Shown here piece by piece: positions 5,317-22,417 of a stretch of 32,000 nucleotides of DNA. Positions within the stretch are counted from its first letter, which is position 1. The number at the start of each line of letters is the position of its first letter. Below the pieces are notes generated by a model. It had not been told where the DNA came from and did not search any database. It was given only the letters and a program-made list of their open reading frames with translations. Source of the DNA: Sinorhizobium meliloti (lineage in GTDB: Bacteria; Pseudomonadota; Alphaproteobacteria; Rhizobiales; Rhizobiaceae); assembly GCF_017876815.1 (NCBI RefSeq), contig NZ_JAGIOS010000003.1:1170001-1202000 (forward strand), written 5' to 3'. Position numbers and translations under genes: made by a program.

Positions 5317-6366
5317 ATGAACACTCTTGCTCCCCGTCTCACGGACCTCGCTCACGGTGGCGGTTGCGGCTGCAAACTCGCGCCCTCCGTTCTACAGCAG
5401 CTTCTTGCCACTCAACCGGCTGCCCGACCTTTTGCCCAGCTCCTCGTCGGCAACGACATGGCCGATGATGCCGCCGTATGGCAGGTGGACGACAACACCT
5501 GCGTGATTGCCACCACCGATTTCTTCATGCCGATCGTCGACGATCCGCGAGACTTCGGGCGGATCGCCGCGACCAATGCTATTTCCGATGTTTATGCCAT
5601 GGGTGGAAAGCCGATCCTGGCATTGGCGATCGTCGGAATGCCGATCAACAAGCTCGATTCGACAACGATCGCGAAGATTCTCGAGGGCGGCGCTTCGATC
5701 TGCGCCGAGGCGGGCATTCCCGTCGCCGGCGGCCATTCCATCGATTCCGTCGAGCCGATTTACGGCCTCGCCGTCATCGGCCTCTGTCACCCGAGCGAGG
5801 TTCGCCGCAATGGCGGCGTAAAAGCCGGAGACGCGCTCATCCTGACCAAGGGGATTGGCGTCGGCATCTATTCGGCAGCAATTAAGAAGAACGCGCTGCC
5901 GGCCGGCTGTTACGAGGAAATGATCGGCTCCACGACGCTGCTCAACCGCATCGGCGCGGACCTCGCCGCCGATCCCGATGTCCATGCGATGACCGATGTC
6001 ACCGGTTTCGGAGTCCTCGGACACGGACTTGAGATGGCCCGTGCGTCTCAGCTTTCCCTCACCCTGAGCCTTCCCGCGATTCCCTTCTTGTCACAAGCTT
6101 ACATGCTTGCCGAACAGGGTTTCATCACGGGTGCGTCGGGGCGCAACTGGGCAAGCTACGGCGCCGACGTCGTGCTTCCCGACGACCTCCCGGACTGGCA
6201 GCGACTGCTGCTTGCCGACCCGCAGACCTCGGGCGGTCTGCTGGTCGCATGTGCGCCGGAAAAGGCTGGCGCATTGGTCGAGAGTATCCGCCTCGCGGGT
6301 TACCCGCTTGCGGGCATTGTCGGAACCGCGGAAGCAGGCGCGGCTCAGATCAACGTGATTTCCTGA
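5317..6366 (+). CDS. selD: Selenide, water dikinase (selenophosphate synthetase), Cys-type
   Basis: The N-terminal [16 protein letters not shown] motif is the SelD glycine-rich loop, with Cys rather than Sec. The body is PurM/AIR-synthase-like. GGAGGA lies just upstream of the ATG at 5317; the ORF track begins at the TTG at 5314. Confidence 0.9.
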
Positions 6367-6429
6367 TATCGATTGCTCGGGGAACAAGCGTTCCCGAACA
6401 TCGTTGGTGGCGATGAAAAGGAGATCGCC

Positions 6430-6807
6430 ATGAGCAACCTCGCACCGACCCGGCCTTCCGCACGTGTTCTGGCCGCTTTCTGCCTGCTGATCGCCCTCGC
6501 CCCCAATCCAGCATCGGCACAGAACGCGAATGAGAAAGCCGATTGCGCCGCGGCTGCCGGCAAGGCGGAGCCGGCAACGCCCCCCGACCGCGCCAGCGCT
6601 GACGGCACCGCGCCCGGCAACAGCGGGTCGACCGGCTGGACCGGAGGAACGGGCGGCGCGCATATCGGCACCAATCCCCAAGGGGGGACTGCGAGCTCGA
6701 CAACCTGGCAGCCGCCGACGGCGCGCGGCATCGATCTCGCCGCGGCAGCCGAAACTCCGCCACCGAAAACCCAGGCACCGGGAGCCCAGACACCGACCGA
6801 CTGCTGA
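6430..6807 (+). CDS. Secreted low-complexity (Pro/Gly/Thr/Ala-rich) hypothetical protein
   Basis: AAGGAGA sits 5 nt upstream of the ATG at 6430. Sec-type signal peptide MSNLAPTRPSARVLAAFCLLIALAPNPASA|QN. The mature part is low complexity and ends ...TPTDC followed by TGA. Confidence 0.55.
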   Translation: MSNLAPTRPSARVLAAFCLLIALAPNPASAQNANEKADCAAAAGKAEPATPPDRASADGTAPGNSGSTGWTGGTGGAHIGTNPQGGTASSTTWQPPTARGIDLAAAAETPPPKTQAPGAQTPTDC

Positions 6808-6911
6808 GGTTACCGCCGTGGCGATCGTTAATTCTGTTTCCAAGCGTCGAGCATGGTAGTAATTTTGTCGGCGAGCGCATTTCACGCCGCTATCAGACGG
6901 GAGCTGAGGCC

Positions 6912-7979
6912 ATGCTGAACCGCCGCCGATTTCTGACGAATGCTGCGACAGCAGCAATCGCGACTGCCTGGGTTTCAAGAGGCGGCACGCGAGCCCGTGC
7001 CGAGGAGGCCGGAAATGGTTCCCGCTGGCGTCGTTTCGAGATTATCACCAAAATCGACCTTCAGCCGGCTGAAGGCCCGGCGCAGCTCTGGCTGCCGGTA
7101 GTCCGGTCTGCCGGTGACTATCAGAAAGCGGACGCTCCGCGCTGGGTATCGAACAGCACCGACATCCGTATGGAGAAAGACCCCTCCTCCGGCGCCGACA
7201 TTCTGCGCGTCATGTGGCAAGACGAGCCACGGCGCGCCATCGAGGTTACTCAACACGTGGCCACGCGCGATCGCCGCGTGGCAAGCAAGATCGCCGCAAC
7301 GGAGGCGGAACTGCAGCATGAGTTGCGCGGCACTCCCAGCATGCCCGTAGACGGCATCGTCAAGACAACCGCCATGCGCATTGTCGAAGGCCGGGATCGA
7401 GCCGAAGATCGCGCTCGGGCGATCTACGATTGGGTGATCGACAATACGTTCCGCGATGCGAACATCGACGGCTGCGGCGTCGGCAACGCCAGGGACATGC
7501 TGGAAAGCGGCTATTTCGGCGGCAAGTGCGCAGACATATCAAGCTTGTTCGTGTCGCTCGCCCGAGCCGCCGGCCTGCCTGCCCGCGACGTCTTCGGCAT
7601 CCGAGTGGCCGATTCCGCCGATTTCAAGAGCCTCGGCCGTTCCGGCGACATCACCAAAGCGCAGCACTGTCGCGCCGAAGTCTATCTCGACGCTCATGGC
7701 TGGGTTCCGGTCGATCCGGCTGATGTCCGCAAGGTTGTGCTCGAAGAAAACCTGCCGCTCGATAATCCCGCCGTCCGCGCTTTCCGCGAAAAAGCTTACG
7801 GCAACTGGGAAATGAACTGGGTGGGCTACAACACGGCGCGAGATCTCGTTCTGCCCGGAGGAGAGCTGCGACAGGGGTTCCTGATGTATCCTGCAGCAGT
7901 TACCTCGCGCGGCGAGCTGGACTGCCTCAATCCGCAGACCTTCGCCTATTCGATCACCTCCAGGGAAATAGCAGCCTGA
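6912..7979 (+). CDS. Tat-exported transglutaminase-like (cysteine-protease fold) protein
   Basis: Twin-arginine leader MLNRRRFLTNAATAAIATAWV. Transglutaminase-core triad context: GGKCADISSLFVSLARAAGLPARDV (Cys), HCRAEVYLDAHGWVPVDPAD (His, Asp). Confidence 0.85.
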   Translation: MLNRRRFLTNAATAAIATAWVSRGGTRARAEEAGNGSRWRRFEIITKIDLQPAEGPAQLWLPVVRSAGDYQKADAPRWVSNSTDIRMEKDPSSGADILRVMWQDEPRRAIEVTQHVATRDRRVASKIAATEAELQHELRGTPSMPVDGIVKTTAMRIVEGRDRAEDRARAIYDWVIDNTFRDANIDGCGVGNARDMLESGYFGGKCADISSLFVSLARAAGLPARDVFGIRVADSADFKSLGRSGDITKAQHCRAEVYLDAHGWVPVDPADVRKVVLEENLPLDNPAVRAFREKAYGNWEMNWVGYNTARDLVLPGGELRQGFLMYPAAVTSRGELDCLNPQTFAYSITSREIAA

Positions 7980-8002
7980 GGGCCAGGCGACGTCCGAAAA
8001 CG

Positions 8003-8032
8003 AAGCCGCAGGAAGATCGATCACTGCGGCTT
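8003..8032. terminator. Hairpin between convergent genes (candidate terminator, mainly for the minus-strand gene)
   Basis: 9-bp inverted repeat AAGCCGCAG (8003..8011) / CTGCGGCTT (8024..8032) with a 12-nt loop. On the minus strand it is followed by CGUUUUCGG. It overlaps the stop codon of the 8021..8404 gene. Confidence 0.3.
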
Positions 8033-8404
8033 GATCTCCTCGATCGTTAGCCGCAATCCATCGGCGTTGAACAAATCCCCCTCCCTGATCAGGGAACGAT
8101 CCTCGTTGAGTTTGAAAACCAGCGAAGCGAGCCTCGACTTCGCCTCCCCGTCCTCCACTAGGCCTTCGCGGCCAGCCCGGTAGAAGACGGCGCCCGACCA
8201 GTCGACGCCGGCGCCGCGGAAAAGCCGCACCATGTCCGGCCAGCGCAATTCGTCCCCGACAACGTGAAGATAGGCTGAGCGCAGCAGATCGACACTGGTG
8301 TCGTTGATCCGGAGCAGCACGAACAGCATGGTGAACGAGCCGACGTCCCTGTAAATCGAGACCACCCAGTCGTCAAAATCGGTCCCATGCGTTTCGGCGG
8401 TCAC
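8021..8404 (-). CDS. Hypothetical 127-aa protein directly downstream of tRNA-Sec
   Basis: The listed ORF 8021..8503 runs into the tRNA. A GTG at 8404 is preceded by GGAGA with a 6-nt spacer, and I take that as the start. No family recognised. Confidence 0.5.
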   Translation of the reverse strand: MTAETHGTDFDDWVVSIYRDVGSFTMLFVLLRINDTSVDLLRSAYLHVVGDELRWPDMVRLFRGAGVDWSGAVFYRAGREGLVEDGEAKSRLASLVFKLNEDRSLIREGDLFNADGLRLTIEEIKPQ

Positions 8405-8418
8405 GAAGGGTCTCCTGA

Positions 8419-8514
8419 TGGCGGAAGAGAATGGGAGTCGAACCCACCCAAGACAGCCTCGCTGCCCCACCCGGATTTGAAGTCCGGACATGCCACCGGG
8501 CATGATTCTCTTCC
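8419..8514 (-). tRNA. selC: tRNA-Sec (anticodon UCA), 96 nt including CCA
   Basis: Minus-strand sequence GGAAGAGAATCATGCCCGGTGGCATGTCCGGACTTCAAATCCGGGTGGGGCAGCGAGGCTGTCTTGGGTGGGTTCGACTCCCATTCTCTTCCGCCA. It has an 8-bp acceptor stem (GGAAGAGA/TCTCTTCC) and a 6-bp D stem (CATGCC/GGCATG) with a 4-nt loop. The 6-bp anticodon stem carries the loop CTTCAAA. There is a long variable arm and a 5-bp T stem with loop TTCGACT, giving the bacterial 8/5 Sec architecture. Confidence 0.93.
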
Positions 8515-8582
8515 AGGCGTCGAATTTGTTGCCATTTCACCGGAGACAATCTTTGCAAACGCGAGCGATTGCTGCCGCTTTG

Positions 8583-8830
8583 CTACCCTTTGCCATCACT
8601 CCTGTCCACTACAGCACGACTGATCATGTCGTCAATCTGCGCTGCGGCATGGGCCTGTATCCCGGGCATCACATGCGAGTACAGGTCGAGCGTAATGCCG
8701 ATCTTCGAATGTGAAAGACGCTCACTCGCGATCTTTGGATGGACGCCGCCGGCCAGCAACTGCGTTGCATGGGTGTGGCGCAAGTCGTGGAAGCGCATCC
8801 GCGGGTGGGTCCACTGGGTCGCCACTCGAA
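8583..8830 (-). pseudogene. Tyrosine recombinase (phage-type integrase), C-terminal fragment only
   Basis: The tail of ORF 8583..9050 reads RFHDLRHTHATQLLAGGVHPKIASERLSHSKIGITLDLYSHV, which covers the HxLRH, LGH-like and catalytic Tyr region. Upstream residues of the ORF do not look integrase-like, so about three quarters of the gene is missing. Confidence 0.7.
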
Positions 8831-9179
8831 AGTGACAGCTCCAATCTTGTCTACGCTCGGCGGCTTGCCTAAGACCTTTGTCGTTGATGAGCTGGTCTAA
8901 GGTCCGGCAAGCACATGTCGGGCGTGTAATTGGAGCTGCAGCTGGTCGGCCCGCTGCAGCTCTGTTTGTTCCTACACACCCGCCGCGATGTCTCTCTGCA
9001 ATCTGAACTCTCGGCCACTCGCTTTGCGGGGCTGCCTCCGCATTTGTCACTCAACATCATCTGGCAACGGTAAGTCCGCCATCGCTCACCGCACAAAATA
9101 CCTCTTCCTATAAACAAAAGACGGAACCGGGCTCTGATCTGCGCGTTCGGAGCAAACATCATCGTGCGAGGAGGCGGAC

Positions 9180-9572
9180 ATGAAACCGGCGACAATATTG
9201 CTTGCCGATGATGAAGCGCTGCTCCTTTTGGATTACGAGGCTGCCCTTGCCGAGGCGGGGTTCGTCGTTGTGGCGGTAGCCAGCGGAGGGAAGGCGATAG
9301 AGGTTTTGAGGTCCGCAGACTCCGAAATAGCAGGGGTGGTAACCGATATTCGGTTTTTTGGACTTCCCGACGGTTGGAGCGTCGCACGTGTTGCCCGTGA
9401 GATTGATCCTGATATGCCGGTCGTCTACGTCACCGGACATGGCGCTCTCGAGTGGCCCTCAAGGGGTGTCGCGAACAGCATCTTGCTCGAAAAGCCCTTC
9501 GCTCTCGCACAACTGGTGACGGCCGTATCCCAGCTGCTCAACGCACCCCGTGCTCCTCAGTGTGGCGCCTGA
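9180..9572 (+). CDS. Stand-alone response-regulator receiver (CheY-like) domain protein
   Basis: 130 aa with strong GAGGAGG 5 nt upstream. Acidic pocket LLADDE, candidate phospho-acceptor in VVTDIRF, conserved T (VYVTGH) and K (LEKPF). No output domain and no cognate kinase in the window. Confidence 0.8.
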   Translation: MKPATILLADDEALLLLDYEAALAEAGFVVVAVASGGKAIEVLRSADSEIAGVVTDIRFFGLPDGWSVARVAREIDPDMPVVYVTGHGALEWPSRGVANSILLEKPFALAQLVTAVSQLLNAPRAPQCGA

Positions 9573-9641
9573 TCCGCAGCCCCGGAGCTAGCACAGATTA
9601 TTCCCAGTCAGTTCTGGCGCAAATGGACAATTCCTGGCTCT

Positions 9642-9854
9642 CTAGGCCGCCGCTCTGAGCATTTCGCGCAAGCTGTCCTTGTTCCTGACGCCCCTTTGAC
9701 AAAGCTCTATTAGCCTAGCTGCCAGAACGGTCGCCTCAGGGCAATCATAGGTCATTCTTCTGGCTTTGATCTCCTCGTCGAACAGGCTCTGCAGCAATTT
9801 GATATCGCTCGGAGTGAGAATCCTAGGATCGATTGCATGGAACTGAGAGGTCAT
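9642..9854 (-). CDS. Hypothetical 70-aa protein
   Basis: Internal ATG at 9854 of ORF 9642..10076, preceded by GGAGA about 8 nt upstream. The upstream part of the long ORF looks non-coding. Sequence MTSQFHAIDPRILTPSDIKLLQSLF... has weak resemblance to the 11104..11391 product. Confidence 0.45.
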   Translation of the reverse strand: MTSQFHAIDPRILTPSDIKLLQSLFDEEIKARRMTYDCPEATVLAARLIELCQRGVRNKDSLREMLRAAA

Positions 9855-10026
9855 TGGCCGATCTCCTCTCTGGGGGCGTAATTGCGGAAACTCCGCAGGG
9901 CGCCCCGGGTAAATTCGGCAGTGCAACGAGCATTGTAGACCGAAGAATGGCGATTGCGAGTCGCGAAAATTCACGGCACGGCTGATAAGCAGTGATCCGA
10001 TCAACATCTCGTGCGTTATTGGCTTC

Positions 10027-10950
10027 ATGGCCAAAGCACCTTCAAAGAAGCCATCCTCAGAGCCGTCTGATCCCATGCCGGCGCGTGTCTATCCCTGCCT
10101 TGCGACGCTCGTCGATAAGCCGCCGACCGGGCAGGACTGGGCCTACGAGGTGAAGTGGGCCGGCTACCGGCTGGCCGTGCACATCGAGCCCGGCTAGGTG
10201 AGAATTCTCACGCGCGGCGGCTACGACTGGACCGACAGGCTCCCGTCGATTGCTGACGACGCGCGACGGCTCGCCGTGCAGACGGCCATAATCGACGGAG
10301 AGGCTGTCGTGCTCGATGAAAAGCATGCTCCAGCGAGCCTTGGGCCGTCTGCCGTCTATCCTCGAAGCGGGCGCCATCGTCTGCTATGCCTTCGACCTGC
10401 TCTATCTCAACGACGCGACGTTCGCCGGCTGCCGCTGCGGGAGCGCCGGAGACTGCTGCAACCGATCATCGCCAGACAGGAAGCGGCGGTTCGGTGTTCT
10501 GAGGAAGGCGATGCGGGGGCGAAGATTTCCTCCGTGCCGCGTGCGCGCACGGCCTCGAAGGCATGATCGCCAAGCATGTCGAGAAGGCCCATCGTTCCGG
10601 CCGGGGCGAGTGGTGGCGAAAGATCGCCTGCAAAAGTCGAAATAGCTTTGTGGTGATCGGCTTCGAGCCGTCGACTGTGCAGGCCATCTCGGTCGGCTTG
10701 TGCTCGCCGCCGGAAGGGCGGAGCTCTGGTTTATGTCGGCGGCTGATTACCGGCTGGTCGAACCAACTGTCGCGCGAGCTGCGTAACCTGCTCGAAGGAA
10801 TGGTGACGAAAACGCCAGCGTTGGCCCTGAGGCGGATAGGCGCCGTCTTCGTGGAGCCGGTGCTCGTCGCAAAAGTCGAGTATCGGGCCTGGACCGATGA
10901 CGGAAATTGCAAGCATGCGTCCTTTAAGGGGAGAAGGCCGCGAGAGGATG
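10027..10950 (+). pseudogene. ATP-dependent DNA ligase (LigD/Lig-type adenylation + OB domains), disrupted
   Basis: Recognisable ligase segments are spread over three frames. They read MAKAPSKK...WAYEVKWAGYRLAVHIEPG, then an in-frame TAG at 10195..10197, then VRILTRGGYDWTDRLPSIADDARRLAVQTAIIDGEAVVLDE. These are followed by IVCYAFDLLYLN (+1 frame), LPLRERRRLLQPII (frame 0), and EDFLRAACAHGLEGMIAKHVEKAHRSGRGEWWRKI, FVVIGFEP and LVAKVEYRAWTDDGNCKHASFKG (+2 frame). The adenylation motif KxDG reads KWAG. Confidence 0.8.
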
Positions 10951-11103
10951 GCCCCCTCTTTTCGGGATGGGCTAGATCTTGTGACAACCTAGAGGGCGTT
11001 GCCAACCGTAAGCCGAAGGCGCAAGGTCCAACCTTCAGTAGAAATGTCACGGGCGCTGCTGCTTAAGGGCTAAAAGCCTTGGCCCCCTTTGAAGGAGCAC
11101 GCA

Positions 11104-11391
11104 ATGTCTTCCAACGTATCCATCATGTCACCTTCGGACCTGCAATTCATCAGGTCAGTTTTGGGCGAAGCCGGCTATAACGCCAAACTTCTCGTTGACG
11201 ATCCTCGATCTTTTGAAACGGCCGAATTGCTCGTAACTAAGTTGTTCCTGGCGGGTGAAGACTCCCGACCGGGCCTGGCGGCGAAGCTAGAGTGTCAGTT
11301 GGGCAAGGCTGGCAGGTACAGACGGCCTCCCGGGTCGTCGCTGGCGCGGTATGCAATCCAAGGTCTTCCAAGCGAGCTACAATTTTCATAA
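11104..11391 (+). CDS. Hypothetical 95-aa protein
   Basis: GAAGGAG lies 6 nt upstream of the ATG at 11104. Sequence MSSNVSIMSPSDLQFIRSVLGEAG... No family recognised. Confidence 0.45.
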   Translation: MSSNVSIMSPSDLQFIRSVLGEAGYNAKLLVDDPRSFETAELLVTKLFLAGEDSRPGLAAKLECQLGKAGRYRRPPGSSLARYAIQGLPSELQFS

Positions 11392-11562
11392 GCACGACGA
11401 TGCCCGGAACGATCGTAGCCCGGTTTGCAAGTTGTAGAACAGCCCAAGAATGCGCAACTCGCGGTTTCCAATTCACGAAGCGTTCCGCGCTTTATCGTGT
11501 CGTTGTTAGGACCGATTGGAAACCACATTTCGCTCCACCCCTTCGTAGAACCGCCGCACCGC

Positions 11563-11853
11563 TCATTCCTTTCCATCCAACTCAATCTTCAGCGTTCTGA
11601 TGATGTCGGCCGCGTCCAGCATGACGTCTCTGGTCTCCGCGGGAGATAGGTCACGGGCGCGTGACGAGGCCAACTGGAGATCAATCACAACGTCTCGGGC
11701 GCGGTGGCTGGCAGCAATGCTAGCCTGCCTGCGCATATCACGGATCGTGTCAACCGAACGATCCAGCAGCCGGCTGATCTCATAGGGCGTAAGTCTTTCG
11801 ACCTCGTTCGCGGCTCTGATCAGTTCGGCAATGAATGCGGTCGTGAGGCTCAT
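11563..11853 (-). CDS. Hypothetical 96-aa protein
   Basis: The ATG at 11853 (MSLTTAFIAELIRAANEVERL...) overlaps the TGA of the upstream ORF in an ATGA arrangement, suggesting translational coupling. The protein looks helical and charged. Confidence 0.45.
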   Translation of the reverse strand: MSLTTAFIAELIRAANEVERLTPYEISRLLDRSVDTIRDMRRQASIAASHRARDVVIDLQLASSRARDLSPAETRDVMLDAADIIRTLKIELDGKE

Positions 11854-12170
11854 GGTCTTCTGACGCCGGCCCCATGCGGAGCGTTTCGAGCGGCTGTTTT
11901 CTCCGCCATCTTCGCTCGGAATTTCTCTCCCAAGCGCGGTACAGCATCCACTCCGAGATTCATTACTCGGTCCAGGTCCTCCCGATACCAGAATTTCCGC
12001 GTGGCGCTTTCCAATACGCATGGCTCCGGATAGGCGGTTCCTACGGGCTCGAGGAAGTCCTCGACGTGCTTTTCGCTGACGCAGCCCGCCGCCATTTCTG
12101 CCGTCATCCGCGGCGGCCAACTACTCGGCGGTACAATGGCTGCGCGATGCTTTCTATTCGAGATAGCCAT
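11850..12170 (-). CDS. Hypothetical protein, possibly excisionase/AlpA-like DNA-binding protein
   Basis: MAISNRKHRAAIVPPSSWPPRMTAEMAAGCVSEKHVEDFLEPVGTAYPEPCVLESATRKFWYREDLDRVMN resembles the short HTH proteins (...R.W.REDLD...) found at the ends of integrative elements. The start is uncertain (ORF track 11850..12332) and the family assignment is from memory only. Confidence 0.35.
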   Translation of the reverse strand: MAISNRKHRAAIVPPSSWPPRMTAEMAAGCVSEKHVEDFLEPVGTAYPEPCVLESATRKFWYREDLDRVMNLGVDAVPRLGEKFRAKMAEKTAARNAPHGAGVRRP

Positions 12171-12374
12171 CAAAGCACCGGGGACTTCGGTCGATGGGCG
12201 CTTAAGTTGCGCATTGCCATATGCCCCGCCTTCCTTAGATTTCATCTGGGCGGCCGTGCCGGCCACGTGCGAGCTCGCCTTGATGAACCCTCGCTCCTTC
12301 CAATTTCTTCTGGCAGGGACGCAACCTCGCACATGCCTTTACGGATCAGACCTTCTAAGTATTGAAAGGGATGT

Positions 12375-14375
12375 TCAAGAGCCGGCGCGATAGAATTTGA
12401 AGTCCGGACGCCCCACCGGGGACGAGTCTCTTCCCTCATCTGCCTCAGGAACGTGCCCTTCGTAAAGATCGAGCCTGTGCGGGTTAACCCGGCGCACGTC
12501 GCCATGCCGGAGCGTCACTCCCTGACGATCGAAGAATTCCAGGATCTCGATCGCCACCTTTCTACCGTTGTTGACACGGTCGCGGAAGAGACCTGCGGAA
12601 AATTCACCCCGCTCGGCATTGGCCGCGACTTGCCTGATGATTGCGACCATTTCCGCTGTCGTCTGACGGGTGAAGAAATGGTCATGCCGAATCTGGTCGA
12701 CGCGGCCGAGCCGTGCACAAAGTTTGAGGATGCGGCGTATCTCTCGCTCGTCTACGCCCAGCGTTTCGGCGAAATCGCGGACTCGAGGCGGACGGAATCT
12801 CTCCTCGCCTTCCAGATGCGGAAGGATTCGTGCATAGAGCTCCTCCTCCTTCTCGCTCAACCGGACCTCGTGACCCGGCAATCGGACGAAGGCGCCTTCG
12901 AGCACCAGGCGCCCGCCCGTCTGTTCGGTCCTAAGCGCAACCAGAAAGGCCGGCGGAGGAAGTCGTGGCGTGACCTGCAGCCGAAGGCGCTCGCGACCGA
13001 TCCCCTGCAGATCGGGGTTCTCCACATGAAAGGCGCTCAATACGCGCTGGACCTCGTCGGAAAATGCGACTCGCTGGCGCTTCGACAGCGCATGGCGCAC
13101 CGCCAGGCCCTCGATGAGTTCGGCCGAGGCAAACATGAGCGCGTTCTGCAGTTCCGGCTCGGACAGGGCCCGGTCGCGTGCAAAGACGTCAAGATCGACA
13201 AGAAATGGCGGAACATCCAGCAATGCCGCAAGCGCTTCGCCAGCATGGGACAGAGATGCGGCTTTCAAGAAGCTCAGCCGCTGGGGAGAGCGCCGCTTGC
13301 GCAGGGGCGCCCGCAGATCCAGGAGCCGTCCTCCACCGATCGTGCGCCGGGCTGAAACGTCGCGCAGTATGAACCGGTCGCCGACAGCAGCCGCGATCGG
13401 ACGGTCGAGCACGAGTTGAACCCGCCGCCGCTCGCCCGGCAACAGCGGTCCCTCGAGCGGCACGATACGAACACCGGTCTCGGCGCTCGCGTGGTGAAAG
13501 CGGGCCGAAAACCATTCCCCGATCGGCTTCGTCTCACTTTCAAGCACAGAAAGATCCGCGTCGAGCCTGTCGCTCGGCGCGTGCAGATGGGGATCGACCA
13601 CCATGTCGCCTCGGGTGATTGCGTTCTTCGAGATCCCCTCGCCCGCAAGGTTGAGTGCACAGCGTTGCCCGGCAAAGCCGCGCTCGGCCCTCTGGTTCTG
13701 AGCATGTATGGAACGTACGCGCGCAGCGCGACCCGCTGGCGAGACCGTCACCTGGTCGCCCACGCCGACGGACCCTGAAAGCACGGTTCCAGTGACCACG
13801 GTTCCGGCGCCCGAGAGCGTGAAGCTTCGATCGACGGCGAGCCGGAAACGGCCACCGGCAGTCGATGCCACGGTCGCACGCTCGGCAGCCGCCAGGCGTG
13901 CCTTCAACAATTCAATCCCCTGCCCCGCCGCCGCAGAGACGGGAAGTATCTCCGCATCGCGGAGGCTCGTCGACGAAAGCACCGCTCCTATTTCATCCGT
14001 CAGGCTCTCGAGGCGGTCAGGATCGGCAAGGTCTGCTTTTGTGATCGCGACCAGTCCGCGGCTGACGCCGAGCAGATCGAGGATCGCGAGATGTTCGAGC
14101 GTCTGGGGTTTGATGCCATCGTCTGCCGCAACGACCAGCATGGCATAGTCGATGCCGCCCGCGCCGGCGAGCATGGTATGAATGAAGCGCTCGTGACCGG
14201 GGACGTCGACAAATCCGGTAACTGCGTCCTTTGCAAACCGGGCATAGGCAAAGCCGAGATCGATGGTGATGCCGCGCGCCTTTTCTTCCTTGAGGCGATC
14301 GGTGTCGACACCGGTCAGTGCCTTGACGAGCGTCGTCTTGCCATGATCGATATGCCCGGCCGTGCCGACGATCAT
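12375..14375 (-). CDS. selB: Selenocysteine-specific translation elongation factor
   Basis: GTPase motifs [17 protein letters not shown] and TKADL, EF-Tu-like domains II/III, and a long C-terminal winged-helix extension (666 aa). The last ~20 codons are read from the tRNA-Sec relic and island junction. Confidence 0.92.
12395..12434 (-). repeat. Relic 5' half of a second tRNA-Sec (att-like partial copy)
   Basis: The minus strand GGAAGAGACTCGTCCCCGGTGGGGCGTCCGGACTTCAAAT aligns without gaps to nt 1-40 of the intact selC (34/40 identical). Identity ends immediately after the anticodon loop. The following sequence (TCTATCGC) cannot form the 3' anticodon stem. Confidence 0.8.
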
Positions 14376-15166
14376 GGCGCCCGCCTTGAAAGCGGCTCTT
14401 GCGCCCGACGTTCCGCTTCCTGGATCTCCGCCGGCGAAAGGCTGTCACGAACCGGTCCCATGAAGGGCTTTGCCAGGGTGCTGCCGCCTTCCGTCGCCCG
14501 GATCAGCCAGACCAAGGCAGTCACACCATTGCGTATCGTGCCCGCCCCCATATGGCAGGCCGCTCCCAGCATGGCCTGGGCGTCTGCGTCGCCCCTCTCT
14601 GCAGCCTTCAGCCACCAGTAGACGGCCTTTTGCGCATCGCGTTCGACACCGAGTGCGTTGTGGTGGAGCATGCCGAGCCGCGTCATCGAGGACGCGATGC
14701 CGGCCTCGGCGGCACATTCCGCCCAGCGTCGCGCCTCGAGCGGGTCGGCCGTCATGATCTCGCCTTCCAGCAGCAGCCAGCTCAACATGTCCTGGGCCGG
14801 CGCGTCGCCCTTTTCAGCGGCGCGTCGATAATATTCGGCTGCGATGCCGTAGTCGGCATCGGTGCCGGCGAGCCCTTGCATGTGCAGGGCGGCATAGTTG
14901 CGTTGCCCGACGGGATCCCCGGCTTCGGCCGCCAGGCGCAGCCATTTGCACGCCAGTTCTCGATTCTCCGGCACCCCGAGCCCTTCTGCGAAGCAGGCGC
15001 CGATATTGTTCTGCGCCCGCGCGACGCCGGCACGCGCCAGAGGCTCCCAGATGCGCAGCGCCGACCCGTAGTCGCCGGCTTGGGCGCGTGCCAGGGCCTC
15101 GGCCATCGGATCGGCCACAGGCGCCGTCTGGGGCTTATTGCCTCGAAGGCGTTCAAGCCACCGCAT
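14372..15166 (-). CDS. Sel1-like repeat (SLR/TPR-like) protein, cytoplasmic, embedded between selA and selB
   Basis: About six SLR units ([47 protein letters not shown]..., [24 protein letters not shown]..., [24 protein letters not shown]..., [25 protein letters not shown]...). No signal peptide. The ATG at 15166 overlaps the selA 3' end by 14 nt, and its stop overlaps the selB ATG (ATGA at 14372..14375). The longer track ORF (to 15325) would overlap selA extensively. Confidence 0.8.
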
Positions 15167-16553
15167 CGCCGCTACCCTCGGACAGGGTTTTGAGGAATTC
15201 CGCCTCATCGGACAGACAGCGCAGGTCCAGAACCAGCGCACCATCCCGCAGGCGCCCCAGGATCGGGCGGGACAGAGACCGGAACAGAGCTGCGAGCGCT
15301 TCGAGTGCGCTCCCGCTCGACCCAACGATCCTCAGGCCGGCGCTCGGGATCGTGTCTACGGGAAGCGCCCCGGAGCCTATCTGGCTCGAACAGCTGCAGA
15401 CCTCGACAGCGTAACCGCTCGGCGCCAGCATCGCGCCGACCTGCGGCGCGAGCCGCTCCGCCTGTGCCCGCACTTCCGCTTGCACGCGGGACAGCATGAA
15501 AAGTGTCGGCAGGCGCGAAGCCAGCCGATCCGGATCGCGATAGAGCTTCAAGGTAGCAGCCGTCGCCGCGATACGGATCTTGTCGACACGCAGCGCCCGC
15601 TTCAGCGGATTGCGGTTGATCTCGGCGATCAGGTCCCTGCGCCCGACGATGAAACCCGCCTGCGGACCGCCCAGCAGCTTGTCGCCGGAAAAGGTGACCA
15701 GATCGGCTCCTTCGGCGACTGCCTCTCGCACCGTCGGCTCCCTGCCGAGACCATAACGCGACAGGTCGACCAGGCTGCCCGAACCGAGATCGTTGAGAAG
15801 CACCACACCTCTTTCATGGGCGATTGCCGCAAGCTCGGCACCCGGGACCTCCGCGGTGAAGCCCTCGATCCTGTAATTCGACGTATGGACCTTGAGGATC
15901 AAAGCCGTCTCAGGCCCGATCGCCTTGACGTAGTCCTTCGCGTGGGTGCGGTTGGTCGTGCCCACTTCGACCAGATCGACGCCGGCGCGCTCCATGATGT
16001 CCGGCATGCGGAAAGCGCCGCCGATCTCGATCAATTCACCCCGCGAAACGATCGCCTGACGCCCGGCACCGACCGAGTTGAGAGCGATCAGGACAGCCGC
16101 GGCATTGTTGTTGACGACGGTGGCATCCTCCGCTCCCGTCAGCTCGCACAGCAGTTCCCGCAAATGGCTGTCGCGTTCGCCGCGCCCACCGGAATCGAGA
16201 TCGAATTCAAGCGCGGCCGCTTCGCGCATTGCATCGACGGCGGCATCGACCGCCTCCTGCGCAAGCAGCGCCCGGCCGAGATTGGTATGAAGCACCGTCC
16301 CCGTCAGATTGAACAGCGGGCGAAGGTTCGAGCGGCTGCGGTCATCGAGCCGGCTCAGCAGAGCGGCAACAATGCCATCCTTGCCTGGCAGCGCCCCACC
16401 GCTCCGCACGGCAAGGCGGACTTCGCCCAGTACTTTGCGCAGTTCGTCCGTCACCACGGCGCGGCCATGCTGCTCCACAAGCGGCGACACGGCCGCCGCG
16501 TTCAGCATCTGGTCGACGGAGGGCAAGGCACGAAGATCGACAGGTCCCGACAT
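15153..16553 (-). CDS. selA: L-seryl-tRNA(Sec) selenium transferase
   Basis: 466 aa with the PLP-lysine context [13 protein letters not shown]. The N-terminal tRNA-binding region is LPSVDQMLN. The start lies 4 nt after the fdhE stop. Confidence 0.92.
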
Positions 16554-16557
16554 TGGA

Positions 16558-17478
16558 TCAATAGCCCATCAGGAACGGGTCAAAGCCCGCCCGCTTGTAT
16601 TCCGTGTCCTTCATCAACAGGTCGAGCCCGAGGCTCGCAACATCATCGGCGACGACGTCGAGCGAAGGGTTCTTGTTCTGGTAGAGGATCTTCATCCAGC
16701 TGTTGCAGGTGTCGCAGACTTCCGCCTTGACCGTCGCCTCTTCGTCTCCCGTCTCGACGGCCTGGTAGCCGATGCCCTTCGTGGAACCGCAGGCGAGACA
16801 TTTGACCCGAACCTCATTCCACATCGTGGCGCAGCAGGAACATGAGGCATAGCGCGCGCCCTCGGCACCATGAAAGCCGATGACCATGGATGCGACCGGC
16901 CTGCCGCCGCAGGCGGGACAGACCCCTACCCGGATCGGCACGAGCCTGCTGCCGTCGAGACCGGCAGCGAGGCGCGCCGCCTGGATTTGCATTGCGGCAG
17001 CAACGTAAAGGTGGTGAGCGAGGCTCTCGACGGGCAGGTCGTCAGCCATGACGTTGCCGATCATCCAGGTCAGCATTTCCTCATCCGCCGTCCGGACCTG
17101 TGCAAGCGCTTCTGCGGCGGCAGCCGGCTTCTCCAGGGCTTCAGCCTTCTCAAAAAATTGCTGCAACACTTCGCGGCAATCCGGCGACCCCCCCATCGCT
17201 GCGCGATCGATGGGGGGCATGGCATTCGCACGCGCACGCTCAACCCGATCGGCCGGGACCGGCTCCGGCGGCGGCAATGCGGATACGAGCTCGCTCTGGA
17301 TTCGCGTGATCCCCGCCAGGAAATTGAGATAGGGAGCGAGGTGGCTGCCTTGGGCGAGTGCCTCGAAGCGACTGGCGCGATCGTTGAAGAGGCGTGCCAA
17401 ATTCGGCTTCAGGACAAACGGTGCCTTGGGAACGCCGCCGATCACCGATGGATCGGGCTGTACAGGGGATACGGACAT
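16558..17478 (-). CDS. fdhE: Formate dehydrogenase accessory protein FdhE
   Basis: Starts at the ATG at 17478 ([10 protein letters not shown]...) with GAGG upstream. Four Cys pairs are present: CPACGG, CSCC, CLACGS, CDTC. The 516-aa track ORF is an artefactual 5' extension over fdoI. Confidence 0.88.
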
Positions 17479-17516
17479 TTCACCTCGCGGGCCGACCGGC
17501 CACAGCTCGTTTCCGG

Positions 17517-18203
17517 TTATTCTGCAGGATCGATCCGGCCGCGTCCAGCCAGTTCCTTGAGCCACTTGCGATGGTGCCGCCACGCCCAGCCACCGGTGAC
17601 CGAGCCCTTCGTCATCGCGCGGAACGTCCCGCGGGTCCAGAAGGCCGCATAGACATGAACGATGAAGACGCAGATGATCAGCACCGCCGCCACGGCATGG
17701 GCGAGCACCGCAAAGCGCTTCGTCTCGATCGACGTATAGCTGTAGAAGTACTGATCCCAGATGATGACGCCGGTTATGATCAACGCGACGATCAGCAAGG
17801 CCATTGCCCAGAAGATCACCTTCTGGCCGGCATTGTACTTGCCCATTTCCGGCAAGCGGTCCTCGTGCCCGCCGATCACGTCGCGAATGCCCGTGAACCA
17901 GCCCATGTCCGCTCTGGTGAAGAGGTTGGCCTTCCAGAGCTGGAAGAAGAAAATGTAGAAACTGAAGAAAAGCACCACGCCGATCCACGGGTGCAGCATG
18001 CGCGTGTTCTGCCCCCCACCGAACAGGCCGGTCAGGAAAAACAGGGACGGGTGGAACATTGCAAGGCCGGAAAGCGCCAGCAGGATCAGGCTGGAGGCCG
18101 TGATCCAATGATTAACGCGCTTGCCCGGCCCATAGCGGTCGACTGTGACCGGCGGTCCGCGATGGATGGCATCTTCCGGTTCAAGATCGCTGGCCTTTGT
18201 CAT
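17517..18203 (-). CDS. fdoI: Formate dehydrogenase-N/O type, cytochrome b556 gamma subunit
   Basis: Four predicted TM helices with conserved His residues ([23 protein letters not shown]). The ATG at 18203 is preceded by GGGAGGA and overlaps the fdoH 3' end by 23 nt. Confidence 0.85.
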
Positions 18204-19173
18204 CAGGCGTCCTCCCTGCGGCTCCGGCGCTATCGACGAGCCTTTCCGCACTCTCTTCGTCTTCCGGCTGCACACGATTGGCCCGGCCGAAGACGCCGTG
18301 GAGAATTGCCCCGGCGGCCACGAGACCCATTGCGGCGAGACCTGTGTATTTGGTCACACCCTTCCATGCCTGGACCACGGCGGAAATCTTCGGATCGTCG
18401 GGCAGATCGGAGTAGATGTGCGGCTTGTCGTTGTGATGCAGCACATACATCACATGCGTGCCGCCTACGCCCGGCGGATCGTAAAGGCCTGCATTCGTAT
18501 AACCGCGGGATTTGAGATCGGCGATGCGGTGTTCCGCATGCTTCTTCATATCCTCCTTCGTGCCGAACACGATCGCGTGGGTCGGACAGGCCTTGGCACA
18601 GGCCGGTCCCTGGCCGACGGCGACCCGATCGGAACAGAGGGTGCATTTGTAGGCGCGGTGATCGACTTTCGAGATGCGCGGAATGTTGAAGGGACAGCCC
18701 TTTATGCAATAGCCGCAGCCAATGCAGTTCTCGTGAACGAAATCCACGATGCCGTTCGAATACTGGACGATTGCGCCCGGCGCCGGGCAGGCTTTCAGGC
18801 ACCCCGGATCGGCGCAGTGCATGCAGCCGTCCTTGCGGATGAGCCATTCGAGATTGTCGGTCTCGGGATTGACCCACTCGGTAAAGCGCATGAGCGTGAA
18901 CATGTCCTCGGTGAGGTCATGGGGGTTGGTATAGTAGCCGACGTTTTCGCCGATCCCCGGATGCGTATCGTTCCACTCGACGCACGCAGACTGGCAGGCC
19001 TTGCAGCCGATGCACTTTGAGACGTCGATCAGCTTGGCGACGGGCGTGAGCTGCCGCTCGGGCGGCGGCAGCTCGGTGGTTGCCGAGCGGCGTACGAGAT
19101 CCCGCTCGGTAAGGTTGCTTTCCATCGGCTGGACCGGCGGATTGCTGACGGCGGTGCGAGGACTGTCCATCAT
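18181..19173 (-). CDS. fdoH: Formate dehydrogenase-N/O type, iron-sulfur beta subunit
   Basis: Four ferredoxin-type clusters: [58 protein letters not shown]. There is a C-terminal membrane anchor. The ATG overlaps the fdoG TGA (ATGA). Confidence 0.92.
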
Positions 19174-22100
19174 ACTCTAGCCTCCTCGGGCGCCGTCGAT
19201 GATTCGATATTGACCAGGAATGCTTTGTATTCCGGCGTTTCGATATTGGCGTCACCGACGAAAGGCGCGAGCGAGTTGGGGCCGAGGCCCTTTTTCGCCG
19301 AGCCGGTGAACCCCCAGTGAAGCGGAATGCCCACCACATGGACCGGCTTGCCGTCGCACATCAGCGGCCGGATGCGCTTGGTCACCACCGCCTTCGCCTT
19401 GACCGAACCACGCTTCGACCACACCCGGACCCAGCCGCCGTTTTCGATATTCTTCTCCTCTGCCAGTTCCTCGGAGATCTCGACGAAGAATTCCGGCTGA
19501 AGCGCGGAATTCACGCGGTTATGCTTGGTCCAGTAGTGGAAGTGTTCCGTCAGCCGGTAGGAAGTAGCCGCGTAAGGGAACTCGTCCGACAGCCCCATCT
19601 GCGCCACGTCCGTCTGAAAGACGCGGCTGACCGGGTTGCCCCGCATCTTCGGATTGAAGACGTTGGCGACGGGGGATTCGAAAGGCTCCATATGGGCCGG
19701 GAACGGCCCGTCCCGCATCAAACCGCGTGAAAACAGGCGTGCAGTCCCCTCCTGGTTCATGATGAACGGGCCGATTTCGTCCGGCTTTGCCGTAGGAGCA
19801 ATATCGGGCACATCGTAGCCCGCCCACTTCGTGCCATCCCACTCGAGCAGCTTACGTGAGGGATCCCACGGCTTGCCCTGCAAATCGGCCGAAGCACGAT
19901 TGTAGAGCGTGCGGCGATTAAGCGGCCAGGCGAATGACCAGCCGAGATAAGCGCCAGTGTCGTCCGGATCGTGGTTGTCGCGGCGGGCCATATTGTTGCC
20001 CTGCTCGTTGAAGTTGCCGGAATAGATCCAGCAACCGCACATGGTCGAACCGTCGTCCCTGAGTTGCGAGAAGTTCAGGATCTGCTTGCCGGCCGCGACC
20101 TGCACCTTCATCGGGTTGGCAGGATCCATGAGGTCCGTCAGTGCCCGACCGTTGATTTCCTTCGCCAGCTCCTCCGGCGTAGGTTCGTTCGGATCGGCAT
20201 AGTCCCATGACAAGTTCAGGATCGGATCGGGGAACGCGCCACCCTCGTTGCGATACATCTCCTTCATCCTGAGGAATATCTGGGCGACGATGTAAGTGTC
20301 GTGCTTTGCTTCGCCGGGGGGTGTTCCACCTGCCCAGTGCCACTGCAACCATCGGCCCGAGTTTGTCAGCGAGCCCTCTTCCTCCGCAAAGCAGGTCGTG
20401 GGCAGCTGGAACACCTCGGTCTGGATGGATGCGGTATCGACAGGGTTGAAGTCGCCATGGTTTTCCCAGAACCGTGCGGTCTCTGTGTCGAGCGGGTCCA
20501 TCGTGACGAGCCACTTCAGGTTCGACAGCGCCTTGGTGTTCTTGTCCCGGTTCGGGAAGGCAAGAAGTGGGTTGAAGCCCTGGCAGATGTAGCCATTGAC
20601 CTTGCCGGCATACATCAGCTCGAACACGCGAAGCACATCATAGGCCGGCACGTCGAGCTTGGAGAGGTAATTGAAGGCCCAGTCGTTGTCGATCCGGGCG
20701 GCATCCCCCCACATGGCCTTCTGGAAGGAGACCATGAACTTCCTGTAGTTCTGCCAGTAACTTGTCTGCCCTGGACGCAATGGTTTGAACTGGCGTGTCG
20801 ACATATAGGTCGTGAAATCCACGTCCTTTTCCGTCGGCATCGTCAGATACCCCGTGAGCAGATGCGACATTAGACCGAGGTCAGTCAGTCCCTGGATGTT
20901 GGAGTGGCCGCGAAGCGCGTTCATGCCGCCGCCGCGCACGCCGATATTGCCGAGGATGAGCTGCAGCATGGCCATGGCGCGGATGTTTTGCGAACCGCTG
21001 GAATGCTGGGTCCAGCCGAGCGCATACATCGACGTCATCGTCTTTGTCGGAGACGAGCATTCCGAGATCATCTCGGCAACCTTGAGGAACTTGTCCTTGG
21101 GCGTGCCGCAGATCCGTTCCACCATTTCCGGCGTATAGGGGGCGAGGTGCGCCTTCAGCAGATTCCAGACACAACGCGGGTGCTGGAGCGCCGGGTCAGT
21201 CACGACGAAGCCGTCGTCGCCGAGGACATAGTCCCACGTCGACTTGTCATAGTCGCGCTTTTCCGCGTCGTAGCCCGTGAAGAGGCCGTCCTGGTAGCCG
21301 AAGCCGTCCTTGACGAGATAGGAGGCGTTGGTGAACGCCTTCATATAGTCCCACTGCACCTTGTCGTTGTCGATGCAATACTTCATCACCCCGTTGAGGA
21401 AGGCGATGTCGGTTCCCTGACGGATGGGAGCGTAATAGTCGGATACGGACGCGGTGCGGGTATAGCGCGGATCGACCACGATCAGCTTCGCGCCCCGCGT
21501 GGCCTTCGCCTCGGTCACCCATTTGAAGCCGCAGGGATGCGCTTCGGCCGCATTGCCGCCCATGACGACTACGAGGTCGGTATTTTTGATGTCGGTCCAG
21601 GAGTTGGTCATCGCTCCACGGCCAAATGTTGGGCCCAAACTGGACACCGTAGGGCCGTGTCAGACGCGCGCCTGATTATCGAAACCGACTATTCCCAGAG
21701 CCTTGGCGAATTTGAAGGTCGCCCAAGCCGTTTCATTGGTGGTCGCCGACGCGGCGAGCATGCCGACCGTCGTCCAGCGATTGACCGGAACGCCTGCGGC
21801 ATTCGCCGCGACGAAATTGGCGTCGCGGTCATCCTTCATCAACCGTGCGATGCGGTCGAAAGCATCCTCCCAGGAGATACGCTCGAACTTATCCGAGCCC
21901 GGCTTGCGGTGCATCGGATACTGGAGACGGGTCGGGGACTTCACGAAGTCCTTGAGCGCCGCCCCCTTGGGACAGAGCGTACCGCGGTTGGTCGGATGAT
22001 CCGCATCGCCTTCGATGTGAATGATGTCGGCAGCCTCACCCTTGCGGAGGTCGCCCTTCGAATAGATGATGACGCCACAGGCGACGGAACAGTAGGGACA

Positions 22101-22259
22101 GGTGTTGCGCGTTTCGGTGGTCGTCGTCAGCTTGTGAGGCCGGACATGCGCGACGACCGCCGCCTCAGCCTCACCAAACCCCATCGCACCGAGTGACGTT
22201 GCCGCAGCCCCTGCTCCAGCCAGCTTCAAAAAGCTGCGCCGTGAGAGGTCTACATTCAT
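19170..22259 (-). CDS. fdoG: Formate dehydrogenase-N/O type, molybdopterin alpha subunit, selenocysteine-containing (in-frame UGA at 21660..21662)
   Basis: Track ORFs 21660..22274 and 19170..21647 share one frame and are joined by a single TGA. The junction reads [30 protein letters not shown], the conserved FdnG/FdoG active-site context. Tat leader [20 protein letters not shown]; the ATG at 22259 has GGAGG 8 nt upstream. The N-terminal 4Fe-4S motif is CPYCSVACG. Confidence 0.93.
21617..21659 (-). promoter_or_regulatory. Candidate SECIS stem-loop immediately 3' of the fdoG UGA
   Basis: The mRNA reads UGA-CACGGCCCUACGGUGUCCAGUUUGGGCCCAACAUUUGGCCGUG. The outer 7-bp stem is CACGGCC/GGCCGUG. An alternative inner hairpin pairs GGCCC/GGGCC around a small apical stem, ACGG-UGU-CC(A)GU. 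This was folded by eye only. Confidence 0.5.
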
Positions 22260-22417
22260 GGGAACAGCCTCCATCTCGTGTCAGCAACAATGGAGTCTAT
22301 GCCTCGACACCAGCAAGTCAAGGTGGAGTGATATCGTCAAAGAAAGCCGCCGCAGCGAGCGGAGGCGGGCATCCAGAGAGAGGACGCGCCTGTGTTGCGC
22401 GTCAGTTGCCGAATAAT

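Follow-up and report, generated by a model that had tools for sequence, protein, structure and literature searches.

Known systems and the pSymA cluster

In the Alpha-, Beta- and some Gammaproteobacteria, similar selA-selB-selC operons adjoin fdhA, which encodes the only selenoprotein, and it has been argued that the selenocysteine (Sec) trait is transferred only as a cluster of selABC with fdhA (Zhang et al. 2006, PMC1794560). The pSymA replicon of Sinorhizobium meliloti is known to encode a cluster of fdoGHI and selABCD (Mukai 2021, PMC8124441, citing Barnett et al. 2001 and Copeland 2005), in which an insertion parts selAB from selCD and a 5′ remnant of tRNA-Sec remains at the end of selB; in four orders of the Alphaproteobacteria, clusters of this kind are accompanied by Sel1-like genes (PMC8124441). 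The only Sec protein reported for S. meliloti is formate dehydrogenase (FDH, the alpha subunit; Romero et al. 2005, PMC1273633), the genes SMa0002 to SMa0028 have been named individually (Sugawara et al. 2013), and the seven genes from fdoG to selB constitute the predicted operon OP_SMa0002 (Schlueter et al. 2013, PMC3616915). Here we describe a 32,000-nucleotide stretch of S. meliloti DNA, referred to as the window, which carries this cluster, and in particular a hairpin in the leader of its fdhE gene that resembles the apex of a SECIS element (selenocysteine insertion sequence).

The cluster is said to have been reported by Barnett with the pSymA sequence in 2001, and the genes themselves, their order and their location were already known, so that there is nothing new in the cluster itself: it is the pSymA operon fdoGHI-fdhE-selA-sel1-like-selB (SMa0002 to SMa0015) together with selC and selD (SMa0028). 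In a megablast search of a plasmid collection, the 11-kb operon region (12000-23000) is 100% identical over its full length to pSymA of S. meliloti SM11, several other strains equal SM11 in identity over the same region, and pSymA positions 600-11624 of strain 1021 are 98.3% identical to it. Strain 1021 has the same genes, order and junctions at this locus (SMa0002-SMa0028, the gene between selA and selB being SMa0013), also at the start of the replicon beside repABC, and differs inside the insertion between selB and selC, where it has copies of ISRm2011-2 and, ahead of selC, another sequence; for this reason the window lacks an equivalent of TSS0037, a transcription start site (TSS) of strain 1021. 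The corresponding gene names assigned by the Prokaryotic Genome Annotation Pipeline (PGAP) in strain ml21 are fdnG, fdxH, gamma subunit, selA, tetratricopeptide/Sel1 protein and selB, followed by repA and repB.

Like the module described by Zhang et al. and Romero et al. (PMC1794560, PMC1273633), this locus places one selenoprotein gene (FDH alpha) beside the Sec-decoding genes; unlike it, the pSymA copy belongs to a megaplasmid of the repABC type and is 2 kb from the origin. It shares its protein families and its decoding mechanism with Escherichia coli fdoGHI-fdhE, selAB, selC and selD, although E. coli selAB lies in a neighborhood of its own between unrelated genes, whereas here the fdo and sel genes are joined as one module. 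The E. coli fdoGHI-fdhE, selC and selD genes are likewise at separate loci. The window holds one copy of an old, horizontally mobile module that combines a formate dehydrogenase of the O type with the selenocysteine machinery. We consider it quite likely that the locus as a whole is best explained as this known module, organized as an operon with two transcription starts, with translational coupling among its distal genes, a leader through which SelB would exert feedback, and a selC gene displaced from its ancestral position. Possible novelty is confined to the SECIS-like fdhE leader, which is a well-supported sequence feature with a predicted function.

A SECIS-like hairpin in the fdhE leader

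Related loci were collected by a SelA scan with one genome per species, which gave at least 75 loci (S. meliloti is not among the matches listed), 61 of them with adjacent selA and selB genes; where individual loci must be told apart they are given numbers with the prefix L. Alignment of the sequences upstream of fdhE across these loci reveals a conserved block just ahead of the Shine-Dalgarno (SD) sequence, set between unrelated flanks. The block has the form CACG-U-GGCCC-GUC-GGGUU-CGUG-AGG in many Rhizobiales and CG-U-GGCCG-GUC-CGGCC-CG in Roseococcus, Roseomonas and Paracoccus, and a form one base shorter, G-U-GGCC-GGUC-GGCC-C, is found in the window, Tianweitania, Rhizobium panacihumi and some Paracoccus. 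In the window the hairpin lies at 17503-17489 on the minus strand (G17503, bulged U17502, stem GGCC, loop GGUC, stem GGCC, C17489), within a leader that runs from a published transcription start at 17512 through the hairpin and three further nucleotides to the SD sequence GAGG (17486-17483) and the ATG at 17478. The architecture is a lower stem, a single bulged U, a stem of 4-5 bp and a loop with a central G-U, and it is the same as that of the fdoG SECIS apex (GG-U-GUCCA-GUU-UGGGC-CC in the window, GG-U-gGCcA-GUC-UgGCc-CC in the Rfam consensus). The U ahead of the stem and the first G of the loop are invariant in all 32 aligned leaders, and a G-U at the loop center is present in 28 of the 32, as judged by eye.

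Because the 12-nt and 13-nt hairpin classes were misaligned by MAFFT, pair counts and a covariance model were taken from the 13-nt class only. Among 26 distinct leader sequences 90.2% of the cells hold a pair, compared with 25-49% when the partners are slid; one stem pair alternates between CG (8 sequences) and GC (7 sequences), and another is represented by five pair types. A search of 1.45 Mb with the covariance model gave 30 matches with E < 0.01, every one of them directly upstream of fdhE, and also recovered copies that were not in the seed, including that of the window (17475-17509, 17.2 bits). Two marginal matches away from fdhE (L044 and L017) were rejected, as they fall in probable coding sequence (long, unannotated open reading frames, ORFs, with unusual translations) and look like chance. 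We also used a descriptor of the SECIS apex only, which asks in turn for a G, a bulged U, a stem of 4 bp or more, a loop of 4-5 nt whose positions 2-3 are GU, and a C. Over 2.89 Mb (both strands) it identifies one genuine SECIS element of fdoG at each of 50 loci, as well as 34 of 55 fdhE leaders, where about 0.13 matches would be expected by chance; it also matches three fdoG leaders and 84 sites elsewhere in the same 2.89 Mb. Independent minimum free energy folds of the E. coli selA leader, the window leader, a class-1 leader and the fdoG SECIS apex are alike, with a lower stem, a bulged U, an apical stem and a G-U loop in common. The distance from the hairpin to the ATG varies by non-multiples of three, and the hairpin block is therefore not coding.

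A leader element of E. coli selAB was reportedly described by Thanbichler and Boeck in 2002. This SECIS-like element lies three bases from the SD sequence; SelB attaches to it in company with GTP and Sec-tRNA, and selAB is thereby repressed (PMC13449736). The fdhE leader hairpin is similar in that it belongs to the leader of an operon encoding SelA and SelB, is 3 nt from the SD sequence as is its E. coli counterpart, and has the single bulged U and the loop with G-U that are seen in a SECIS apex; it thus has both the position, in the 5′ untranslated region by the SD sequence of the first gene, and the apex features expected of a SECIS-like operator. It differs in that it stands ahead of fdhE rather than selA and has unrelated stem sequences, and in that SelB binding and repression, reported for the E. 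coli element, are predicted for the fdhE leader. No SECIS-like hairpin was seen upstream of selA at those loci where fdhE does not precede selA.

From this likeness it seems that SelB probably binds the leader hairpin and limits the translation of fdhE and, by coupling, that of selA, the Sel1-like repeat (SLR) gene and selB. Because the hairpin precedes fdhE and not selA, any effect on selA and selB must run through translational coupling. To our knowledge there is no case of such SelB feedback outside the E. coli selAB leader, and a literature search returned no paper linking SECIS, fdhE and selB in this sense, a description elsewhere being possible. A broader proposal is that a SECIS mimic bound by SelB stands at the single ribosome entry site of a translationally coupled sub-operon, fdhE-selA-SLR-selB, such that one contact would set the whole Sec machinery, that this feedback is ancestral and transferable across the Alphaproteobacteria, and that it includes a second hairpin in the fdoG leaders of Xanthobacteraceae-like genomes; on this broader proposal we would place even weight for and against.

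The hairpin in the Xanthobacteraceae-like genomes (GU-CCCCC-GGY or GUU-GGGGG-C) is likewise SECIS-like and lies about 37-40 nt upstream of the fdoG ATG (L013, L018, L022, L023, L032, L035 and L040); the window, with an fdoG leader of just 27 nt, lacks it. The fdoG leaders of Paracoccus-type loci carry a conserved block, TACCTATC-N6-8-GACAGGCA, between a promoter-like TTGAC and the fdoG SD sequence (L005, L020, L021, L025, L027, L034, L042, L057 and L058), which may be a site for a regulator or else an RNA motif of the leader.

Transcription and translation of the operon

Transcription starts have been mapped in strain 1021 using RNA pooled from 16 conditions and exonuclease removal of 5′-monophosphate RNA (Schlueter et al., PMC3616915). 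One of these, SMa_TSS0004, has a coverage of 1031 and precedes the ATG annotated for fdoG by 12 nt (PMC3616915); it corresponds to window position 22286, seven bases past a TTGACT-N16-TAGACT sequence identified by a consensus promoter scan. A second exonuclease-resistant 5′ end, SMa_TSS0016 (coverage 302), is reported 34 nt upstream of fdhE (PMC3616915, supplement 2), and it is also present in an earlier 454 dataset as the leader SmelAR003. The sequence around this 5′ end has an exact match in the window, by which the start falls at 17512, in the 38-nt gap between fdoI and fdhE and five bases past the fdoI stop. Upstream of it are CTGGAC (17548-17543), an 18-nt spacer and CAGAAT (17524-17519), a moderate match of the sigma-70 type with hexamers read by eye, in which the CAGAAT -10 overlaps the final codons of fdoI. 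For selA, the SLR gene and selB no sense-strand start was mapped in strain 1021, and selD has starts of its own (PMC3616915). We infer that the internal start is a promoter that gives fdhE-selA-SLR-selB independent expression.

When recomputed from the sequence, all six junctions proved to be exactly as given in a first-pass annotation of this DNA: fdoG and fdoH overlap as ATGA, fdoH and fdoI overlap by 23 nt, gaps of 38 nt and 4 nt separate fdoI from fdhE and fdhE from selA, selA and the SLR gene overlap by 14 nt, and the SLR gene and selB again overlap as ATGA. Strong SD sequences precede fdoH (GAGGAGG), fdoI (GGGAGGA) and fdhE (GAGGTGA), so that downstream translation need not await the decoding of UGA205 in fdoG. 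The selA and selB genes are without a clear SD sequence, and start 4 nt past (selA) or overlapping (selB) the preceding stop; their translation is probably coupled, by termination-reinitiation, to that of fdhE and of the SLR gene, respectively.

A sigma-70-type promoter 27 nt upstream of fdoG, to which both the published start and a matching motif point, initiates the plausible long transcript, and we propose that a second start, at the published 5′ end in the 38-nt fdoI-fdhE gap and behind a putative promoter, would allow fdhE-selA-SLR-selB to be expressed separately. The fdoG, fdoH, fdoI and fdhE genes would be translated from SD sequences of their own, while selA and selB would be fed by ribosomes that finish on fdhE and the SLR gene. 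SelA, SelB, SelD and tRNA-Sec would together decode UGA205 of fdoG through its SECIS element, and the fdhE leader hairpin, as a candidate mimic of the SelB-binding SECIS apex, would enable SelB to throttle fdhE and then, through coupling, selA, the SLR gene and selB. The selC gene would once have been nested in the 3′ end of selB, and a now-decayed element, on recombining in the anticodon loop, would have shifted the intact selC by 3.9 kb.

Further published starts lie nearby. A very abundant short RNA, SmelAR007/TSS0049 (coverage 4521; Schlueter et al.), starts 176 nt ahead of selD and has the same orientation (window 5141-5218, plus strand); before it the window has TAGACT, a -10 hexamer identical to that of fdoG, and the predicted fold of the RNA is unremarkable. 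The -35 regions of the internal fdhE start (CTGGACG, 17543-17549) and of this selD-upstream RNA (ATGGACG, 5105-5110) share TGGACG, which may reflect chance or common control. Small-RNA starts have also been published in the 2-kb spacer between fdoG and repA, of which SmelA001/TSS0003 (coverage 686) maps exactly to window position 22625 on the minus strand, and SmelAR001/TSS0001 has a sequence that differs in this strain and gives no match.

Conservation of the module among relatives

Among the 61 listed loci with adjacent selA and selB, fdoG-fdoH-fdoI-fdhE lies directly upstream and on the same strand in 46 (19 with the Sel1-like gene and 27 without it), and selC overlaps selB or lies within 150 nt of it in 50. 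The selD gene is within 10 kb in 38 of these loci, an SLR gene stands between selA and selB in 23, a small ORF after selC is conserved in 23, and a transglutaminase-like gene is found within 10 kb in 17, often between selD and fdoG and on the opposite strand. The median junctions are 3 nt for fdoG-fdoH, -1 for fdoH-fdoI, 68 for fdoI-fdhE (range 6-556), 4 for fdhE-selA, -14 for selA-SLR and -4 for SLR-selB, and the loosest of them, fdoI-fdhE, is at the same place as the loose joint of the window in most loci. In Bartonella, fdhE-selA-selB is apart from fdoGHI, and at one locus (L012) selAB stands alone. Because the tight junctions are common to the relatives they are a family trait and not a property of this plasmid, and the genes form a conserved module rather than a group brought together by chance. 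We note that neither repA nor repC is present within 10 kb at any of the 75 loci listed; the position beside the replication origin is thus peculiar to pSymA, and proximity to repABC is incidental.

Alternative explanations

Several observations weigh against our interpretation of the fdhE leader. Most of the stem pairs are invariant, so that covariation is modest, with double changes in two pairs, and the related loci that carry the hairpin are not independent samples. The leader folding energies are no better than those of shuffled sequences, with z-scores between -1.6 and +1.1 for the folding of the SECIS element, the leader hairpin and the selD-upstream RNA. At E <= 10, Rfam models find in 12000-22600 the fdoG SECIS element and the tRNA-Sec remnant only, with neither a second SECIS element nor a known leader family, the leader being left unscored by the SECIS models; the window copy is the weaker 12-nt variant, with its 17.2 bits; and about one third of the fdhE leaders are without the motif, for example those of Bartonella, Ensifer adhaerens L18 and some Paracoccus. 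The hairpin might then be unrelated to SelB and act as a generic 5′ stabilizer, a determinant of RNase processing or a means of tuning access to the SD sequence, its SECIS likeness being a coincidence in a GC-rich genome; the missing Rfam and folding signals are in keeping with this, as are other GC-rich hairpins that occupy the same place in L019, L017 and L024 with neither a bulged U nor a GU loop, and four leader sequences that have GGC or GGG loops. We regard this explanation as unlikely, because coincidence sits poorly with the excess of descriptor matches over chance, the invariance of the U and the first loop G with the nearly constant central G-U, a layout equal to that of the E. coli selAB SECIS-like operator (PMC13449736 and our folds), and the presence of a similar hairpin in the fdoG leaders of another clade. 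Alternatively the conserved block could be a DNA operator through which a transcription factor controls the internal promoter, as it is partly palindromic (CACG...CGTG; GGCC...GGCC) and lies just downstream of the mapped start. However, 18 of the 26 sequences pair GG with UU, and the two G-U wobbles are symmetric only in RNA, which indicates an RNA structure rather than a DNA palindrome; moreover, the CG to GC swap at the top of the stem preserves pairing and not sequence, and the unpaired U is conserved on one side only. A DNA operator is consequently highly improbable, and we favor an RNA hairpin that SelB would recognize.

The operon can also be read, as the first-pass annotation did, as a single obligatory mRNA of about 10 kb on which FdoG depends for the distal genes of its own message, a self-referential bootstrap. 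A long fdoG-selB transcript is plausible: the genes are on the same strand with short gaps or none, the tight junctions are conserved, all seven are predicted to form an operon (PMC3616915), no separate start is mapped for selA, the SLR gene or selB, and there is no convincing intrinsic terminator inside the operon (22 terminator-like sites, compared with 14.6 +/- 3.8 in shuffled sequences). The 5′ end in the fdoI-fdhE gap, seen in two datasets, nevertheless marks an internal start within this unit, and the long transcript is therefore not the sole route to the sel genes; the annotation had named internal promoters or terminators as the observation that would overturn its model, and the 5′ end at 17512 behind promoter-like sequence points to the former. 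The gap is moreover the loosest junction across about 50 species among the loci listed, the separate fdhE-selAB of Bartonella and the lone selAB of L012 show that the parts can occur apart, and fdoH, fdoI and fdhE have strong SD sequences. FdoG does depend genetically on SelA and SelB, as had been claimed, but since both act in trans no cis dependence on a single mRNA is needed, and the dependence is not tied to the message of fdoG itself. The internal start, for its part, has hexamers that are moderate matches read by eye, it was missed by the consensus promoter scan that recovered the fdoG promoter, and as the TSS library had no untreated control the 17512 end could be a processing product protected by the hairpin. 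On balance an obligatory single message is distinctly improbable, and we retain an operon with two starts.

Probable displacement of selC from the 3′ end of selB

A C-terminal extension of SelB that derives from tRNA-Sec sequence is common to the nested alphaproteobacterial selB-selC genes of Mukai (PMC8124441) and to pSymA, although, unlike the nested genes, pSymA selB keeps the 5′ half only and the working selC is 3.9 kb away. The interruption between them has been described as a transposon insertion (PMC8124441). The final 60 bases of selB open with 40 nt that match the 5′ half of tRNA-Sec as far as the anticodon loop (12434-12395) and then diverge, this remnant being translated as the SelB extension; its counterpart in the intact selC is 8514-8475. 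The D-arm of the remnant (CGTCCC...GGGGCG) is that of relatives in which selC is nested (L047, L003 and L004), whereas the D-arm of the intact selC (CATGCC...GGCATG) departs from it by compensated changes in three pairs; both tRNA-Sec copies contain the core GTCCGGACTTCAAAT, past which they diverge. One of these relatives, Rhizobium panacihumi (L047), is uninterrupted and has, in this order, nested selB and selC, the same small ORF, a transglutaminase-like gene and selD.

Directly upstream of the intact selC is a truncated tyrosine recombinase gene (8583-9050), which matches only the C-terminal ~45 residues of the Pfam Phage_integrase domain, and the rest of the insertion contains DNA ligase fragments and hypothetical ORFs (PGAP, ml21). 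The insertion thus has a recombinase gene beside an intact tRNA gene and a direct repeat at its far end, as in a tRNA-targeting element, although with a truncated integrase and fragmented ligase genes it is not intact and mobile. The D-arm difference, the shared GTCCGGACTTCAAAT and the truncated integrase upstream of selC lead us to place the integration in the anticodon loop, and the arrangement fits a site-specific integration in which the element would have brought a 5′ half of its own, regenerating selC and leaving the old half fused to selB. Site-specific recombination would accordingly seem a better fit than simple transposon disruption. We note that tRNA-targeting elements more usually supply the 3′ part of the tRNA.

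Two published transcripts of strain 1021 concern this region. TSS0020 (coverage 148) corresponds to approximately window position 12342 on the minus strand, 33 nt past the selB stop, as placed by coordinate offset, and precedes a 185-aa hypothetical ORF of the inserted element (11563-12120). SMa_sRNA_7 (15479-15576) was considered as a candidate for selC and rejected, as ARAGORN places selC of strain 1021 at 15716-15811 and the sequence upstream differs between strains.

Genes and RNA signals of the locus

The features of the locus are listed in Table 1. The first-pass annotation had placed all four Sec functions (selD, selC, selA and selB) within about 17 kb near repABC, which ARAGORN, Rfam and NCBIfam bear out, and its finding of an fdoG gene with an in-frame UGA accompanied by fdoH, fdoI and fdhE agrees with the SECIS_3 and NCBIfam matches; that fdoG is the single client gene is in accord with the report of FDH alpha as the only selenoprotein of S. 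meliloti (PMC1273633), and the absence of a second sel gene set is likewise taken from the literature. The NCBIfam equivalog models require a score above a curated cut-off, and this was well exceeded by selD, selB, selA, fdhE, fdoI, fdoH and both halves of fdoG. The selenocysteine-decoding set is complete, with SelA, SelB, SelD, a tRNA-Sec with a UCA anticodon and a client gene with UGA and SECIS, all above their cut-offs, as is the respiratory FDH set of the O/N type (alpha, 4Fe-4S beta, cytochrome b gamma and FdhE, by NCBIfam). TIGR01553 matches fdoG in two halves, of 1148 and 227 bits, that flank the UGA, which is at 21662-21660 and is codon 205 when counted from the ATG at 22274; the SECIS_3 element begins 3 nt ahead of it. 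Of two possible starts of fdoG, the ATGs at 22259 and 22274, the former is the likelier, as a GGAGG SD sequence precedes it. The selD product has the motif GGGCGCK and is of the Cys type, and is therefore not itself a selenoprotein.

The small ORF directly after selC (8024-8404) has no Pfam or NCBIfam match, and its GTG start overlaps the stop of a hypothetical selB frame read through selC; it may be one of the ORF1/ORF2 of Mukai (PMC8124441). The repABC operon begins about 2 kb from the start of fdoG, on the opposite strand, and includes a counter-transcribed RNA (ctRNA; 26464-26508, minus strand) and an S-element (26551-26618) between repB and repC, both above their Rfam gathering scores; repC is assigned from its ORF only.

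Table 1. Features of the pSymA fdo-sel locus in window coordinates.
Feature	Position	Strand	Evidence
selD, selenide-water dikinase	5317..6366	+	NCBIfam NF002098, 497.7 bits
Transglutaminase-like protein with twin-arginine signal	6912..7979	+	Pfam Transglut_core, E = 1e-21
Small conserved ORF (127 aa) directly after selC	8024..8404	-	Conservation in related loci
selC, intact tRNA-Sec, anticodon UCA	8419..8514	-	ARAGORN; Rfam RF01852, 79.7 bits (gathering score 47)
Decayed integrative element between selB and selC	8515..12394	-	Pfam; PGAP (ml21)
Remnant, 5′ half of ancestral tRNA-Sec	12395..12434	-	Rfam tRNA-Sec partial match, 23.1 bits; alignment with relatives
selB, Sec-specific elongation factor	12375..14375	-	TIGR00475, 429 bits
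SLR gene between selA and selB	14372..15166	-	Pfam PF08238, five repeats, E = 2e-39
selA, selenocysteine synthase	15153..16553	-	TIGR00474, 594 bits
fdhE, formate dehydrogenase accessory protein	16558..17478	-	TIGR01562, 513 bits
SECIS-apex-like hairpin and SD sequence, fdhE leader	17483..17503	-	Covariance model, descriptor, pair counts, fold
Internal transcription start and promoter-like sequence	17512..17548	-	SMa_TSS0016/SmelAR003 (PMC3616915), exact sequence match
fdoI, cytochrome b556 gamma subunit	17517..18203	-	TIGR01583, NF007924
fdoH, iron-sulfur beta subunit	18181..19173	-	TIGR01582, 533 bits
fdoG, molybdopterin alpha subunit with Sec, exported by twin-arginine translocation (Tat)	19170..22259	-	TIGR01553, TIGR01409 (Tat signal)
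SECIS_3 element	21607-21665	-	Rfam, 81.6 bits (gathering score 63)
fdoG promoter, TTGACT-N16-TAGACT (22321-22294), TSS 22286	22286..22321	-	Promoter scan; SMa_TSS0004
repABC operon	24257..27821	+	Rfam RF00489, RF00490; PGAP repA, repB (ml21); ORFs

Implications for selenocysteine decoding in the Alphaproteobacteria

The pSymA fdo-sel cluster typifies a trait for Sec decoding that moves together with a single client gene, and the idea of a selenoprotein that depends on its own mRNA is weakened by the published internal start. If SelB does bind the fdhE leader, the missing ribosome-binding sites of selA and selB would be explained by a single entry point at fdhE. Confirmation would extend SelB autoregulation from E. 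coli to a large bacterial group, and would provide a simple handle with which to tune the capacity for Sec insertion in rhizobia.

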